A stretch of DNA of 64,000 nucleotides from Escherichia phage pEC-M719-6WT.2: sequence record OQ845958.1. One strand, 5' to 3'. The number at the start of each line of letters is the position of its first letter. The first letter of the stretch is position 1. This document shows, piece after piece, positions 34,971-44,557 of this stretch. The notes beneath the pieces are model-generated. The model saw nothing but the letters and a program-made list of their open reading frames with translations, searched no databases and was not told the origin of the DNA. Position numbers and translations under genes: made by a program.

Positions 34971-35264
34971 ATGGACCTTATTCGAGGACTTTCTCTAAGT
35001 CTATTACTAATGGGCTGTTTAGGCCCAAATATGTCCTCTGCTACAGATGGTAAATTTACCCAGTATGCAGATAGTGCGATGCAAATCTATTCGCAATTCA
35101 AAGAACCCAGCGTCGAGCAGTCCGAACAATTTTGGGCTTTTATTAAAACTGAATGGAACAATAAGAGTCAATGTGTAAATGAAATCACATGTCAAATTGA
35201 TGGCCGTGCGGCTGCAGTCGAATACGCTAAATTAATGAAGGTAAAATTGGAAGATGAAATTTGA
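34971..35264 (+). CDS. rI: lysis inhibition regulator RI (periplasmic antiholin)
   Basis: 97 aa as T4 RI; signal-anchor N-terminus; SVEQSEQFWAF and C-terminal KLEDEI resemble recalled T4 RI. Confidence 0.75.
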   Translation: MDLIRGLSLSLLLMGCLGPNMSSATDGKFTQYADSAMQIYSQFKEPSVEQSEQFWAFIKTEWNNKSQCVNEITCQIDGRAAAVEYAKLMKVKLEDEI

Positions 35265-35637
35265 TGATTTCGTAACGGGTCGTGGGTCTGAGGTGGATTC
35301 ATATATTGGGTGGTTGTTAGTCTCTTTGGCTTATTTTAAATCCGCCCATCTTGAAACCAAAAGTTACGCCCGCCATAAAGCTTATGATTTCTACTTCACA
35401 GAAATCCAAGGTCCACTCGACCAGTTCAGTGAGCAATGGTTAGGTTACAGCGGGAAACAATACAAAGCTGCATTACCGTCCGCCTCGGACTTGCCGAAAG
35501 ATACAATTTTGTTTTTAGATGAAATGATTAAAAGCTCGGAAAGAGTCTATAAAGTTGTACCTAAGGCTATTCAATCGACTCTGGACGATATCGTTGGAGT
35601 TTTCTTTCAAACTAAGTATCTGTTAACACTAGAGTAA
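35254..35637 (+). CDS. hypothetical protein
   Basis: 127-aa ORF overlapping rI 3' end; followed by terminator. Confidence 0.5.
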   Translation: MKFDDFVTGRGSEVDSYIGWLLVSLAYFKSAHLETKSYARHKAYDFYFTEIQGPLDQFSEQWLGYSGKQYKAALPSASDLPKDTILFLDEMIKSSERVYKVVPKAIQSTLDDIVGVFFQTKYLLTLE

Positions 35638-35643
35638 TTCAAA

Positions 35644-35673
35644 AGGTCTGCCTTCGGGTGGACCTTTTTTTTT
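35644..35673 (+). terminator. rho-independent terminator
   Basis: 9-bp stem with TTCG tetraloop followed by T9. Confidence 0.75.
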
Positions 35674-35741
35674 CATTTAGGGGGTTTACATCCTCATAAA
35701 AAGGGTGTACTATTATCCCATCAACTACTGAGGAGAATACA

Positions 35742-36185: not shown

Positions 36186-36368
36186 ATGTTAACTACTGAA
36201 CAGATTGAACAAATCCTTAAACTTGCTACTGCTATTGAACGCGATTCTTATGATATTGCAGTAGAACATTGTGAAGGCTATTCATATTCCGGAATAGAGC
36301 AGTGTAAACGAGATTTAGCGAATTCTAAAGCAGCATTGGTTGAGTATCTGAATGAGTTGAAAGAATAA
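36186..36368 (+). CDS. hypothetical protein
   Basis: 60-aa ORF. Confidence 0.45.
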   Translation: MLTTEQIEQILKLATAIERDSYDIAVEHCEGYSYSGIEQCKRDLANSKAALVEYLNELKE

Positions 36369-36625
36369 TGGCTGTTGGATTTGCAAAAGACGGAGCTGAA
36401 CAGCTAGAGATGGAAGCGGTTGTACAAGCCGCTATCACCCATGCGAGAGCACAAGTTGCAGTTGAAAGGGAGTCTGCTGAATTCTGTTTTGACTGCGACG
36501 AAAAAATTCCTGAAGCGCGGAGACAAGCGATTAGGGGTGTGATATATTGTGTTGGTTGTCAATCAATGCATGATGAAATTTTTAAACGTGAGCCACGAAA
36601 CTGTTGGCACAGGAGCATGAGATGA
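36368..36625 (+). CDS. TraR/DksA-like C4 zinc-finger protein
   Basis: CFDCDEKIPEARRQA...CVGCQ four-Cys finger. Confidence 0.6.
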   Translation: MAVGFAKDGAEQLEMEAVVQAAITHARAQVAVERESAEFCFDCDEKIPEARRQAIRGVIYCVGCQSMHDEIFKREPRNCWHRSMR

Positions 36626-36717
36626 TTTACTATCTTGAACCTTGGGCTTGGTTAACAATGGCTATAGGGCCTGTTTTAATTGGTTTATTCTTTTCATGGT
36701 TAGCGAGGAAACTGTAA
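36622..36717 (+). CDS. candidate 31-aa hydrophobic peptide
   Basis: MIYYLEPWAWLTMAIGPVLIGLFFSWLARKL; ATG overlaps upstream stop and stop overlaps next ATG; below ORF-track cutoff. Confidence 0.35.
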   Translation: MIYYLEPWAWLTMAIGPVLIGLFFSWLARKL

Positions 36718-36932
36718 TGTTGTATGACCCAAGTGGTAATTTTGAAAATGGTGTGATTGTTCTGGAGCCTGAGCATCCAATTGGTGACGTATACCGCCCA
36801 GTTGAAGTGTGCGAATGTAATTTTGTTGCAGGTAATACTGGTGGGATTTCCATTGAGCAAGATGATGATGTTATTTACCTGGATGCAAGCCAAGTAGAAG
36901 CGCTTTATAGTATTTTAAAACATAACCGTTGA
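36717..36932 (+). CDS. hypothetical protein
   Basis: 71 aa from ATG after SD GAGGAA. Confidence 0.5.
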   Translation: MLYDPSGNFENGVIVLEPEHPIGDVYRPVEVCECNFVAGNTGGISIEQDDDVIYLDASQVEALYSILKHNR

Positions 36933-36942
36933 GGAACAGAAA

Positions 36943-37503
36943 ATGATTATTGAAACAACTGAATTGTTTGGCGAACTGACTGCTGAAGTGGTTAATAACG
37001 CAATCGAGCTTTGTCAAGAAGACGATAAAATCGTACTGACTATCCAAGATATTAAACCACTTTATAATTTAATGGTTTTGGATAGAGCTGACTATCTCAA
37101 TGGACGTAATAGTGCTCCTGTCGATATTAACGATGAGCTATACGCTTATATCTATAAAAATGAAAATGGGTTTAATCTGGAAAATGGTATAGAATGCCTG
37201 AGCATTAGCGATTCTGATAAATTCTTTGATTGTATTTTCAAACTCTTCCAGGAAGAATGTAAACCGGAAGTTGAATGGAAAGTTCCGGGACAAGATGCAC
37301 TGATTCGCTCTAGTGAAACGTTTGAAGGCGATGAAGAGGAACTAGATTATAATACTGAATTAACTGTGCATCAACATAACGGCCGTGACCTGTTATCTAT
37401 TGTCCAAAGACATGACGGCGAAAGTGAAGTGGTATTTACTAAGGACGAGCTAAAAGTTTTAGTCTCTTATCTGAACTCTGTTATCCCAACTATGAACTCT
37501 TAA
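36943..37503 (+). CDS. hypothetical acidic protein
   Basis: 186-aa ORF with SD GAGGAA. Confidence 0.55.
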   Translation: MIIETTELFGELTAEVVNNAIELCQEDDKIVLTIQDIKPLYNLMVLDRADYLNGRNSAPVDINDELYAYIYKNENGFNLENGIECLSISDSDKFFDCIFKLFQEECKPEVEWKVPGQDALIRSSETFEGDEEELDYNTELTVHQHNGRDLLSIVQRHDGESEVVFTKDELKVLVSYLNSVIPTMNS

Positions 37504-37514
37504 GGAAAATTATT

Positions 37515-37967
37515 ATGATTATCAATACAAACTCATGGCACGCTCGTTTCCACGACCGTTTTTATGACCGTCATTCTCGTCCACACTCTTTGTGTGCTTA
37601 TTTCTGGAAAATGGTTTGGGCTTGTTTTGTTTGTGCCGTTTTTATCGGTAGTATGGTTTTTGGATTAACTGTCGCGGGTGCAGGTGTATTAGAGCATTTC
37701 TTTGTATTAAGCACCCCGGTCGGTTTAGGCTTAGGGTTTATTTTAGGACTAGCTACACTGGCTCTTATTCTGACGGTAGCATTTGGTCTAATGTATGGTC
37801 TAATGAATTTATGGGCCTGGTACGATTTACGTAAAGAAGAAAAAGAATGGGAACGCATTAAAGCTAAACGTGAAGGAAAGGAAATTAAAGAAAATGTTTT
37901 CATTCAATATATCAAAGCTCGTAAATCTAAGATGTGCCCAGTAATCCACTTCGAGGACAAAGAATGA
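37515..37967 (+). CDS. membrane protein
   Basis: 150 aa, two long hydrophobic segments. Confidence 0.55.
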   Translation: MIINTNSWHARFHDRFYDRHSRPHSLCAYFWKMVWACFVCAVFIGSMVFGLTVAGAGVLEHFFVLSTPVGLGLGFILGLATLALILTVAFGLMYGLMNLWAWYDLRKEEKEWERIKAKREGKEIKENVFIQYIKARKSKMCPVIHFEDKE

Positions 37968-38974
37968 AAACTATTATGAAAGGCTACTTCGGTAGCCACC
38001 TTTATGGAACAAGCACCCCAGAATCTGATGTTGATTTTAAAGAAATCTTTGTTCCTCATCCGCGAGATATCCTGCTCGGAACCGCGATGAATCATACAAA
38101 CCTGAACACGAATAACACGGCTACCAAAAACACAAAAGACGATATCGATCATGAATTATTCAGTCTGAAATATTTCTTTAAACTGGCTGCCGAAGGCGAA
38201 ACCGTTGCCCTGGATATGATTCACACCCCGGCTGACCTGGTAGTCAAATCCGATTTACCAGATGTATGGAAGTTTATTCAAGACAACCGTTCGCGGTTCT
38301 ATACAACTAACATGAAAGCCTATTTGGGGTACGTCCGTAAGCAAGCTTCCAAATATGGTGTTAAAGGTTCTCGATTGGCTGCACTGCGTGGTGTACTGAC
38401 AATTGTTAACCAGATTCCTGAACAGTGTGTCGATTATCAAGAAGATGGTTCTATTAAACAACGTCGAACTAAAGTAGAAGATATTAAGCACCGGCTCCCT
38501 GAAAACGAGTTCTGTGAATGGGTATTTCATAACCATGAGAAAACAGGTCCTCAAACGTTCTATACTGTTCTTGGACGTAAGTACCAAACCACCCTGTCTT
38601 TAATCGAGCTCAAGCAATCTCTGAATAAACTTGATGCCGAATATGGTGAACGTGCTCGTAAGGCTGAAGCCAATGAAGGTATTGACTGGAAAGCATTGAG
38701 TCATGCTTACCGAGCTGGATATCAGCTGAAGGAAATCTATCAAACTGGTGACCTGGTTTATCCACTTAAAAATGCTTCTATTATTAAAGCAATAAAAGCT
38801 GGTGATATGCCTTTCAAAGTAGTTCAAGGCCTGTTGGAAAATACTGTTGATGAAGTTGAAGTCCTGGCCATCCAGGCTGCTAAGAATGGTATGCCTGCGA
38901 AGGTGGACATGAAGTTCTGGGACAAGTTTGTTGAGGAGGTATATCTTGACAACCACAATTCCTATTATCGATAA
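37964..38974 (+). CDS. Pol-beta superfamily nucleotidyltransferase-like protein
   Basis: GSHLYGTSTPESDVDF fits hG[GS]-x(9-13)-DhD motif; 336 aa; ATGA overlap. Confidence 0.55.
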   Translation: MKTIMKGYFGSHLYGTSTPESDVDFKEIFVPHPRDILLGTAMNHTNLNTNNTATKNTKDDIDHELFSLKYFFKLAAEGETVALDMIHTPADLVVKSDLPDVWKFIQDNRSRFYTTNMKAYLGYVRKQASKYGVKGSRLAALRGVLTIVNQIPEQCVDYQEDGSIKQRRTKVEDIKHRLPENEFCEWVFHNHEKTGPQTFYTVLGRKYQTTLSLIELKQSLNKLDAEYGERARKAEANEGIDWKALSHAYRAGYQLKEIYQTGDLVYPLKNASIIKAIKAGDMPFKVVQGLLENTVDEVEVLAIQAAKNGMPAKVDMKFWDKFVEEVYLDNHNSYYR

Positions 38975-39170
38975 CCAGGAAATCAAGGTCTTCTTATCGT
39001 ATGGAAGACCTAATAAAGGTCGGCGCTGGTATCTCGAAGCAGTCTGTCGGGAAACTGGCAGACGAATCAACAATAAGTACATATGCAAACCAACTCCCAA
39101 ACAAACTCGCAGGTTTGTTAACTGGGCTATCAATACTATAAGATTCCATAATTTTTGGAGTGCAATCTAA
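38946..39170 (+). CDS. candidate small basic protein with TTG start
   Basis: TTG 7 nt after GAGGAGG, overlapping 3' end of upstream gene; no ATG in frame. Confidence 0.3.
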   Translation: MTTTIPIIDNQEIKVFLSYGRPNKGRRWYLEAVCRETGRRINNKYICKPTPKQTRRFVNWAINTIRFHNFWSAI

Positions 39171-39192
39171 GGGCCATCTGGCCCTTTTTTGT
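39169..39192 (+). terminator. rho-independent terminator
   Basis: GGGCCA-tct-GGCCC followed by TTTTTTG. Confidence 0.7.
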
Positions 39193-39939
39193 TTATGAAG
39201 TCACTGTTTGTTCGGCTACTAACAATGCAGAGGTTATTGTAAAGTTGCCGCCATTTGGCATAACAGTTATCGCTGTACCATTGGTTGCCATTGCCCCATC
39301 TTTATCAATGCTAAAGAACGTTGTAAAAGACAAAATATCTGTAGCATTTTCCGGACGATTTTGTATATAAGTGTTTCCGTTGGTTCCAACGAAATTTAAT
39401 GTTATACTTCGAGCTTGCGAGCTTCCTGTAAAATTACCAATAAGGTTGAGTTTAAATAATAGGCTTCTGTCTTGGTTATATGGCCACAACTTATCATCAG
39501 TGGTTCTAAAAAACGGAGATAGAGTCCCTGCTGTCGGCGGAATCCCCTTTAAAACACTAATTATGTTTGACGTCACACCATTAGTTAATAGAACGTTTAT
39601 ACCACTCCAAAACACCTCGGATTTTTCCCTCTTTCCTGCTGTATCAGTTAAAAAATCATCAACAGTTCCTGTATTTCCCAAGTCAAGCCATATCTGATAA
39701 GAAGACTTTCCATCCCCGCCTGGGTCTCCTTTTGGTCCTGGTACACCCGGTTCTCCTTTGGGACCAGGCGGACCCGGTATCTGAGTTTCCGAGCTGGACA
39801 TAGTTTGGAAAAAACGCTCTTTGCTATCTGTAGGAGTATTCGGCAACACCATAGTAGAACCAAACAAATACCAATTATTAGCCAAGGCAGCCTGGACTTT
39901 TTCATTGAGTTCATCAACAGTTCTTCCGGATAAAATCAT
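39193..39939 (-). CDS. collagen-like repeat protein (fibre-like), only minus-strand gene in the early region
   Basis: 248-aa ORF with GPPGPKGEPGVPGPKGDPGGDG (seven G-X-Y triplets); SD AAAGGAG. Confidence 0.7.
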   Translation of the reverse strand: MILSGRTVDELNEKVQAALANNWYLFGSTMVLPNTPTDSKERFFQTMSSSETQIPGPPGPKGEPGVPGPKGDPGGDGKSSYQIWLDLGNTGTVDDFLTDTAGKREKSEVFWSGINVLLTNGVTSNIISVLKGIPPTAGTLSPFFRTTDDKLWPYNQDRSLLFKLNLIGNFTGSSQARSITLNFVGTNGNTYIQNRPENATDILSFTTFFSIDKDGAMATNGTAITVMPNGGNFTITSALLVAEQTVTS

Positions 39940-43232: not shown

Positions 43233-44222
43233 ATGACACGTAATGAATATATCCAGGCCTTTAACACCACTATCGATGCAAAAGTAAAACCATTAATAGG
43301 TGAATCGGCTATCCTTTTAATTATCAATTACTGGTTAAATCAGATTGACTCGACGATTGTTGCATCCGGTCGCTTCAAGAAAGACATTGCGACTATTGCG
43401 AGTCGTGCCGGTAAAGATGATATCAAGAAAACTTTTAAAGGTTCCCGAGTCCTGGCATACCTAGTTAATAAAGACCTTCTTAATAAGTTTGGTGTTGAAT
43501 CCAGACGTGGTAAAGGTACAATTGGATATCATTGGTTTGGTGATGTTGAAAAATACTACCTTGATAAACAAGGCTATACTGTTTCTGAATTCGCAAATTG
43601 TTGGGCTCGTGAATTCAGAGATAACAAAATGTCTATCATAAAATCAGCGACAAAATTGATGGGCAGCGATTATCGCACTATCTCCCATTTGGCTGAGCAC
43701 ATGATAAATGTTAAAGAGTCTGGTGAAAACCAGGTAATTATTACAGTTAAGTATGAATTCTTTACGCCGGTGGCTACTCCAGAAAATGTCAAAAAGTATC
43801 TTGATGCCGCGAGCACGCTTACTTCACAGCTGCAGTGTGCCCTTAATTATATGCGCACTGTTGAAAAAATTAAAGTAGACCCTATCACCAGTACTCATGG
43901 TTGGAAAGGTTGGAAAATTGTGGTGACATTACGCGAAGTTAAATGTGCAAAGCAACCAACTGTTGCAGAAATTTATAAAAAGAAAAGTGAGGAAATTATG
44001 AATGCTCCGCAAGAAACCACCCTTGAAGACCTGATTGATAATCTGAATAATGAGCCAGTGGAACAAAAAGCGCCTGAAATTGTTGCTCTGGAAATGGCGT
44101 ATAATAAAGCTCTTGCTGTTAATAAAAAGGCAACTGAAGACTATACCAAAGCCAAGCGACTTTGGGAAGAATCAACTAATCGTCTGGATAAACTGGAACA
44201 GGCTCTGGAGCTGCTGAAATGA
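43233..44222 (+). CDS. hypothetical protein
   Basis: 329-aa ORF, SD GAGGAG. Confidence 0.6.
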   Translation: MTRNEYIQAFNTTIDAKVKPLIGESAILLIINYWLNQIDSTIVASGRFKKDIATIASRAGKDDIKKTFKGSRVLAYLVNKDLLNKFGVESRRGKGTIGYHWFGDVEKYYLDKQGYTVSEFANCWAREFRDNKMSIIKSATKLMGSDYRTISHLAEHMINVKESGENQVIITVKYEFFTPVATPENVKKYLDAASTLTSQLQCALNYMRTVEKIKVDPITSTHGWKGWKIVVTLREVKCAKQPTVAEIYKKKSEEIMNAPQETTLEDLIDNLNNEPVEQKAPEIVALEMAYNKALAVNKKATEDYTKAKRLWEESTNRLDKLEQALELLK

Positions 44223-44557
44223 AACAACGTTTAGCTGAAGATATTGCAGAAACTGCATTTCCAGAATGGACCCCCGCAGCGGGGGTTAATAAAGGTCTTT
44301 TAAAATTTATTGAAAACGCTGAGGGTGTTGACCTTGTTCAGTTAGGAAAGATTCATGGCTGTGATGATTATAGTCAGGTTCCTGATTGGGATATGGTAAT
44401 GGCTATGGTTCGTCGGCGTGAACGTGCTTCTAAACGTGTTCCAAACTGTCCAGAATGCGGAACTGAACAGGTCCAGTTAGTCCATTGGCAGACTAGTAAT
44501 CTTCGTTATAAATGCAGACATTGCAAACACAAATTTGAGCGAGAAGAAAATGAATAA
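44219..44557 (+). CDS. zinc-ribbon protein
   Basis: CPECG...CRHCKH four-Cys pattern. Confidence 0.5.
   Translation: MKQRLAEDIAETAFPEWTPAAGVNKGLLKFIENAEGVDLVQLGKIHGCDDYSQVPDWDMVMAMVRRRERASKRVPNCPECGTEQVQLVHWQTSNLRYKCRHCKHKFEREENE

Follow-up and report, generated by a model that had tools for sequence, protein, structure and literature searches.

Through TraR-type proteins, plasmids and temperate phages can change the transcription programme of their host and yet leave the stringent response untriggered. Lambda Orf73 and P2 Orf82 alter transcription initiation independently of ppGpp, like TraR, and five phage or mobile-element homologues of TraR, two of them with an incomplete DxxDxA motif, were shown to bind RNA polymerase and to complement a dksA deletion (PMC9239242). 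This tip motif is needed for the activity of both TraR and DksA; P2 Orf82, which has the incomplete version DxxDxI, still binds RNA polymerase and is active, and RSP0166 and SMc00049, proteins of intermediate length that are longer than TraR and have no DxxDxA, display no DksA- or TraR-like activity (PMC9239242). In the globular zinc domain of TraR, R48 binds the β' rim helices and E46, R49 and K50 bind β' Si3, the P45A variant is binding-defective, and the C-terminal helix contacts the β lobe/Si1 (PMC9239242; PMC6970531). A further member of the family, the chromosomal YbiI of E. coli, is uncharacterised and sigma-S-dependent (sigma-S regulon paper); at high level it rescued dksA auxotrophy (Blankschien 2009, data not shown; PMC2613031).

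That T4-like phages carry a DksA/TraR gene is already known as an observation. Citrobacter phage Moon and further T4-like phages were reported to carry a zinc-finger protein of this family (Genome Announc 2015, PMC4319498), and the domain was recorded for ORF130c of phage 44RR in a survey from 2006 (PMC1524935). The GenBank names are “DksA C4-type domain-containing protein” in EAWsc9 and “zinc finger protein” in Moon, and the JGI label for the gene is TraR family. What we add here, from a copy in a 64,000-nucleotide stretch of phage DNA (the window), is the placement of the protein in the YbiI branch, the lack of a canonical DxxDxA, two frozen termini, and a remnant of the gene in Mosigvirus.

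The zinc-finger gene and its place in the DksA/TraR family

The gene occupies positions 36368..36625 on the + strand, from its ATG to a TGA stop that is included in the end coordinate, and encodes an 85-residue protein (MAVGFAKDGAEQLEMEAVVQAAITHARAQVAVERESAEFCFDCDEKIPEARRQAIRGVIYCVGCQSMHDEIFKREPRNCWHRSMR). A first-pass annotation of the window had set a TraR/DksA-type zinc-finger protein at exactly these positions, and they coincide with an open reading frame found on that strand. We take the ATG at 36368 as the true start because MAVGFAKDGAEQ is invariant at the N-terminus of all full-length homologues. The cysteine-bearing segment, SAEFCFDCDEKIPEARRQAIRGVIYCVGCQ, holds the zinc-binding module C40-x2-C43-x17-C61-x2-C64 (36485..36559, + strand), in which the ligands C40, C43, C61 and C64 fall in columns that are invariant in alignments of 30 and of 34 sequences. 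The annotation had read this four-cysteine pattern as the C4 finger of TraR/DksA, named a cysteine spacing incompatible with that fold as the argument against itself, and proposed a profile comparison with TraR. Its reading stands: the CxxC-x17-CxxC spacing is the same in the phage protein, TraR and YbiI, the Pfam model PF01258 (zf-dskA_traR) matches with 35.7 bits (E=8.5e-9) against a gathering cut-off of 24.9, the fold model agrees, and hhalign gives a probability of 99% for the match with TraR. The ORF is a real gene and not a chance motif.

Within the family, the closest matches lead to YbiI. PHROG 54, “DksA-like zinc-finger protein”, was matched at E=6e-20, and among solved structures phmmer ranked YbiI best (2KGO, E=1.5e-9), with TraR (5W1S/6N57) at about 1e-4. 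BLASTP aligned residues 1–69 to YbiI with 39% identity. The NCBIfam ranking is headed by the YbiI equivalog NF008243, with 75.7 bits under a cut-off of 96 and a match that spans residues 1–71 of the protein and positions 1–70 of the 88 in the profile; the TraR subfamily model TIGR02419 comes second, with 52.3 bits under a cut-off of 59.7, and neither DksA model (TIGR02420/NF008045) was among the NCBIfam matches at E<=0.01. The hhalign probability given above was obtained between an alignment of phage and YbiI sequences and one of TraR, the latter a shallow profile because the homologue search returned close relatives only (at least 66% identity). A profile search of 1.84 billion representatives returned 2,937 clusters at E<=1e-3, of which 380 lay at E<=1e-10, and the top matches were nearly all YbiI-type proteins of 88 residues. 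By these scores the zinc-finger protein is a member of the YbiI branch rather than the TraR branch, yet it falls below the cut-offs of both models.

The alignments resolve two sister groups that have MAxG[WF]AxDGAxQ, IPEARR and the cysteine spacing in common. The bacterial YbiI group ends in YNRRGSKDSQLR and the phage group (84–86 residues) in PRNCWHRSMR. YbiI, at 88 residues against 85, is the best match in both sequence and fold, sharing MAxG[WF]AxD.A, IPxARR and the spacing of the ligands; it is chromosomal whereas the protein described here is phage-encoded. In each, the extreme C-terminus is conserved and basic, with R as its final residue; the two tails share only R77 and the terminal R/K. 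A metagenomic protein, P0144 (…NRKVWHRSMR), has a seemingly intermediate tail. The neighbourhood of bacterial YbiI, considered as a functional lead, was not conserved between the two loci examined.

The likeness to F-plasmid TraR (5W1S, 6N57), lambda Orf73 and P2 Orf82 lies in a common three-part architecture and the CxxC-x17-CxxC site, and all four are small products of mobile elements whose genes are expressed along with the early or lytic ones. The other three belong to temperate phages or a plasmid, whereas the present gene belongs to a virulent T4-like phage. Compared with TraR, the protein has 3 extra residues at the N-terminus, two conserved glycines, and about 12 extra residues at the C-terminus. 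With DksA of E. coli (1TJL, 5VSW, 7KHI) it shares the zinc-finger family PF01258, but the two-helix coiled coil and the residues of the ppGpp site are missing, and it is about half as long.

An AlphaFold2 model built from 34 sequences, of moderate confidence (mean pLDDT 72.7), places a long helix at residues 8–30, a short one at 49–54 amid the zinc knuckles and a third at 62–71; residues 1–7 are coil, and residues 1–5 and the tail are of low confidence. The 85-residue model thus has a single N-terminal helix, unlike the coiled coil of DksA. In a Foldseek search against the PDB, YbiI came first by E-value (E=2.7e-5), followed by RNA-polymerase-bound TraR (5W1S_M, with a TM score of 0.69 and an rmsd of 2.5 Å over 67 columns; also 6N57_M), and the matches to DksA were much weaker (E about 0.2–2). 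The predicted architecture is accordingly that of TraR: a long helix at the N-terminus leads into the globular zinc domain, which is followed by a short helix towards the C-terminus.

A conserved putative contact motif between two invariant termini

Residues I47-P-E-A-R-R52 (36506..36523, + strand) are identical in the alignments to I44-P-E-A-R-R49 of TraR, the segment that includes the glutamate and arginines described above as contacting RNA polymerase and the proline of the binding-defective variant. Throughout the clade I47, P48, R51 and R52 are invariant and E49 nearly so, and position 50 varies in some phage members. This conservation is the best sequence argument for contact with the polymerase rim because the residues are not zinc ligands, and we infer that IPEARR is a putative rim contact. 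[quoted passage not shown]

The N-terminus follows a different pattern. In ungapped register the protein is 3 residues longer than TraR at this end, and codons 1–12 (36368..36403, + strand) encode the clade-invariant motif MAVGFAKDGAEQ, which takes the place of the DxxDxA tip of TraR. Across phage and bacterial members, M1, A2 and G4 of MAxG[WF]AxDGAxQ are invariant, and conservation reaches 90% or more at A6, D8, G9, A10 and Q12; the tip of the clade reads F5-A-K-D8-G-A10, with the conserved glycines at positions 4 and 9. Neither hhalign nor MAFFT comparison with TraR found DxxDxA in its canonical form. The hhalign match begins at residue 19, pairing each residue i with TraR i-3 and leaving residues 1–18 unaligned. 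When the protein is aligned by MAFFT with TraR, lambda Orf73 (taken from a raw, unannotated ORF) and P2 Orf82, residues D3, D6 and A8 of TraR fall on A6, G9 and E11, so that D3-E-A-D6-E-A8 of TraR, D3-I-I-D6-S-A8 of Orf73 and D3-N-V-D6-F-I8 of Orf82 stand above A6-K-D-G9-A-E11, and the partial D8-G-A10 lies one position out of register. An equivalence of D8-x-A10 with D6-x-A8 of TraR is unsupported, given where hhalign starts and the offset of D8 in MAFFT. The segment D8-G-A-E-Q also resembles locally what we take to be the tip of DksA, D74-R-A-A-Q, a likeness supported by none of the alignment tools.

The tip of the phage protein cannot lie exactly like that of TraR because the TraR N-terminus nearly touches the catalytic Mg. 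The glycine-containing segment MAVGFAKDGA may form a non-helical hook that replaces the helical DxxDxA. The lambda gene used in this comparison (orf73, NC_001416, 1593-1814, - strand) is unannotated in that copy of the lambda record.

At the other end, codons 76–85 (36593..36622, + strand) encode the tail PRNCWHRSMR, which is basic, rich in Arg, His and Trp, and near-invariant as RNCWHRSMR in the phage clade, with an occasional K85 or T83. TraR has no such tail, and bacterial YbiI has NRRGSKDSQLR at this position. The C-terminus of lambda Orf73, …SKQRGSK, resembles the start of that YbiI tail over four residues, which we regard as a lead only.

Both ends were compared codon by codon among SP18, EAWsc9, Marfa, CIP9, two Asteriusvirus jumbo phages and Salmonella phage PHA46. 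At the protein level MAVGFAKDGAEQ and PRNCWHRSMR are identical in every phage of the set, while their codons are saturated at synonymous positions, with up to 12–15 synonymous differences over about 13 synonymous sites, including an AGC/TCT serine switch. Whole-gene dN/dS in pairwise comparison with the orthologues in SP18, Marfa and CIP9 is 0.04–0.16; the comparison with the Asteriusvirus jumbo phages shows saturation at synonymous sites, with 64–65% of the residues kept. The gene is under strong purifying selection, and both termini are its most constrained parts. An overlapping downstream gene or ribosome-binding site was considered as the source of the tail conservation and rejected: in the annotated jumbo phages CRJP21 and PHA46 the next gene starts 60–80 bp downstream, and the tail is identical there but written in other codons. 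Since the jumbo phages keep the tail without any overlap, its conservation does not merely follow from the shared bases with the membrane ORF described below. Because both the N-terminal hook and the basic tail are invariant, they probably provide contact surfaces that are either extra or modified.

Genomic setting and distribution

Around the zinc-finger gene, about 4 kb are 97.7% identical to Escherichia phage ECML-359 and 91–95% identical to SP18, VR20, EAWsc9 and other Gaprivervirus (Straboviridae, Tevenvirinae), and on this similarity the window is assigned to a Gaprivervirus-type T4-like phage. The gene lies within a block matching T4 tk – rI – rI.-1 – mobD.5 … mobD.1 – nrdC.11. This tk–nrdC early region is variable and known for gene turnover.

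The T4 mobD.3 orthologue immediately upstream (DUF7438; 36186..36368, + strand) ends in a TAA that shares one base with the zinc-finger ATG (TAATG). On the other side, the ATG of a 31-residue single-pass membrane ORF (36622..36717, + strand) overlaps the zinc-finger TGA (ATGA), and this ORF overlaps its own downstream gene through another TAATG. Because start and stop codons overlap in this way, the arrangement indicates that the zinc-finger gene is translationally coupled to its neighbours. The small membrane protein (MIYYLEPWAWLTMAIGPVLIGLFFSWLARKL) is without annotation in SP18 and EAWsc9; in Mosigvirus ST0 a near-identical ORF of this type is annotated, with an upstream TTG start.

An intrinsic-terminator-like hairpin with a 12-bp stem and a T run (35641..35668, + strand) closes the preceding rI/rI.-1 unit, and just 3' of it stands a promoter-like GTTTACA-17-TACTAT (35685..35713, + strand), a consensus match that is a candidate start of the transcription unit containing the zinc-finger gene. 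The next terminator-like hairpin on the + strand that comes after a gene end (39169..39186) follows the nrdC.11-type nucleotidyltransferase gene and probably ends the unit. Taken with the synteny to T4, these consensus matches agree with an early or delayed-early unit comprising about nine coupled genes. The location in an early region, which the first-pass annotation had also proposed, is borne out by the synteny with the T4 tk-rI-mobD-nrdC block and by the terminator/promoter-like pair upstream.

Several neighbours are worth recording in their own right. The rI.-1/mobD.6 orthologue (35254..35637, + strand) bears the RefSeq name “starvation-inducible transcriptional regulator”, and the T4 mobD.1 orthologue (36943..37503, + strand) is a y05I-like putative transcription factor with the Pfam domains T4_y05I_N and T4_y05I_C. 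The nrdC.11-type nucleotidyltransferase (Pfam RlaP; 37934..38974, + strand) has a GTG start at 37934 in the ORF list, giving 346 codons; its start is annotated later in SP18 and EAWsc9, which also disagree with one another (332 and 336 codons). Right after the hairpin at 39169-39186, a 248-residue ORF lies on the minus strand amid the plus-strand early region (39193..39939, - strand), and its counterpart in EAWsc9 is annotated as “tail-NK domain-containing protein”.

T4 itself has no copy of the gene at the syntenic slot, and a tblastn search of a 7-kb T4 region gave no match. Between mobD.3 and mobD.1, T4 carries mobD.2a and mobD.2, both unrelated to the zinc-finger protein, which is why a link to homing endonucleases suggested by the mobD.x names of the slot was dropped. 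Elsewhere the family is widespread: tblastn found relatives in 770 phage records. Full-length copies are present in Gaprivervirus, Kanagawavirus (CIP9), Marfavirus, Citrobacter phage Moon, Yersinia phages and jumbo phages of 340–366 kb, and distant copies with 40–48% identity in Klebsiella, Enterobacter, Acinetobacter, Aeromonas and Erwinia phages. The Moon protein (P0007) belongs to the same gene family, being 75% identical, equal in length and possessed of the same termini.

A remnant of the gene is found in Mosigvirus ST0 (2459-2626), where a chimera of 55 residues keeps just 28 residues from the C-terminal end of the zinc-finger protein and with them a single CxxC, the second. Its DUF2283-like N-terminus (MLYDYTGKSEDGVLELLPE…DDDMVVIY) is joined to this remnant at “VIY” (compare 36548-36625 and 36717-36932 of the window), and PHROG 25948 corresponds to this Mosigvirus DUF2283-like/zinc-finger chimera. 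Some metagenomic variants of the chimera lack even the cysteine of that CxxC, and all except the truncated P0063 retain RNCWHRSMR.

Proposed role and a second zinc ribbon

Our preferred reading, to which we give a probability of about 60%, is that the protein acts on host RNA polymerase early in infection. It would be made early from the run of coupled small genes in the tk-nrdC region, dock on the β' rim helices of the host enzyme and insert its N-terminal helix into the secondary channel. There, with no need of ppGpp, it would change the kinetics of initiation, for example by lowering the activity of rRNA and ribosomal-protein promoters, to the benefit of the phage. The first-pass annotation had suggested that a phage copy could retune host transcription, which is reasonable in the light of the phage homologues already assayed (PMC9239242), and the rescue of dksA auxotrophy by YbiI (PMC2613031, data not shown) lends indirect support. 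The MAVGFAKDGA hook would give the protein a tip chemistry other than that of TraR, and the basic tail is a further difference.

T4-type phages control host RNA polymerase by other means, through Alc, AsiA/MotA and ADP-ribosylation, and because of this the need for a zinc-finger factor is not obvious. On the preferred reading, virulent T4-like phages would use the TraR lever alongside several dedicated RNA-polymerase modifiers.

The fold of the family could also have been kept without its function, so that the zinc domain serves as a scaffold from which the hook and the basic tail bind another target, be it nucleic acid, the ribosome or a different host or phage protein. The missing canonical DxxDxA and the 18 N-terminal residues that cannot be aligned to TraR speak for this, as do the inactivity as DksA/TraR-like factors reported for family members without DxxDxA (PMC9239242), the Arg/His/Trp-rich composition of the tail, and the fact that constraint is strongest in exactly the parts that TraR lacks. 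We nevertheless consider it doubtful, though a serious possibility: IPEARR is nearly invariant in the clade without being needed for zinc ligation, the overall architecture of the model superposes on RNA-polymerase-bound TraR, overexpressed YbiI rescued dksA auxotrophy (PMC2613031, data not shown), and the two bacterial YbiI loci examined have no conserved neighbourhood hinting at another pathway. If the protein does reach the secondary channel, it might simply occupy it, excluding DksA/ppGpp, GreA/GreB or Rnk without the allosteric effects of TraR, as an anti-stringent or anti-Gre decoy. A conserved rim-binding motif combined with an altered catalytic-site tip is what such a blocker would display, and Rnk, which binds the channel and only competes, is a precedent (PMC9239242); but the altered tip is itself invariant, which argues for a specific contact and not for dispensability, and we rate this reading as improbable. 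The gene might also be a dispensable passenger of a hyperplastic region and play no significant part during infection, an idea in keeping with its absence from the T4 slot, the chimeric Mosigvirus remnant with one CxxC and the gene turnover for which the region is known. We give that idea hardly any credence in view of the strong purifying selection (dN/dS 0.04–0.16) and the retention of the gene, its termini identical, across many T4-like genera as well as unrelated jumbo phages.

A broader and unlikely interpretation is that the whole YbiI-type branch, bacterial and phage, forms a mechanistically distinct class of secondary-channel factors, or that its termini are aimed at a target other than RNA polymerase. 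If the branch were such a class, the MAxGFAxDGA hook and the basic tail would engage the active-site region and the β-lobe or DNA channel in a way unlike TraR or DksA, and the phage tail RNCWHRSMR could suit an RNA polymerase already remodelled by T4-type phages. The clade is widespread and its termini are frozen, which makes it a convenient entry point to the role of the uncharacterised E. coli YbiI.

The window holds a second zinc ribbon, which the first-pass annotation had described at 44219-44557 as unrelated to DksA/TraR. The ORF is indeed present (44219..44557, + strand; 112 residues, CPEC…CRHC), has no relation to the DksA/TraR protein and is the orthologue of T4 nrdC.2, belonging to PHROG 1474; its product reached no Pfam or NCBIfam cut-off. 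Its C-terminal half has a further match, to a PHROG with the label “NrdC-like thioredoxin”. Some GenBank records call the nrdC.2 orthologue a thioredoxin, which looks like spill-over from the annotation of the neighbouring nrdC.
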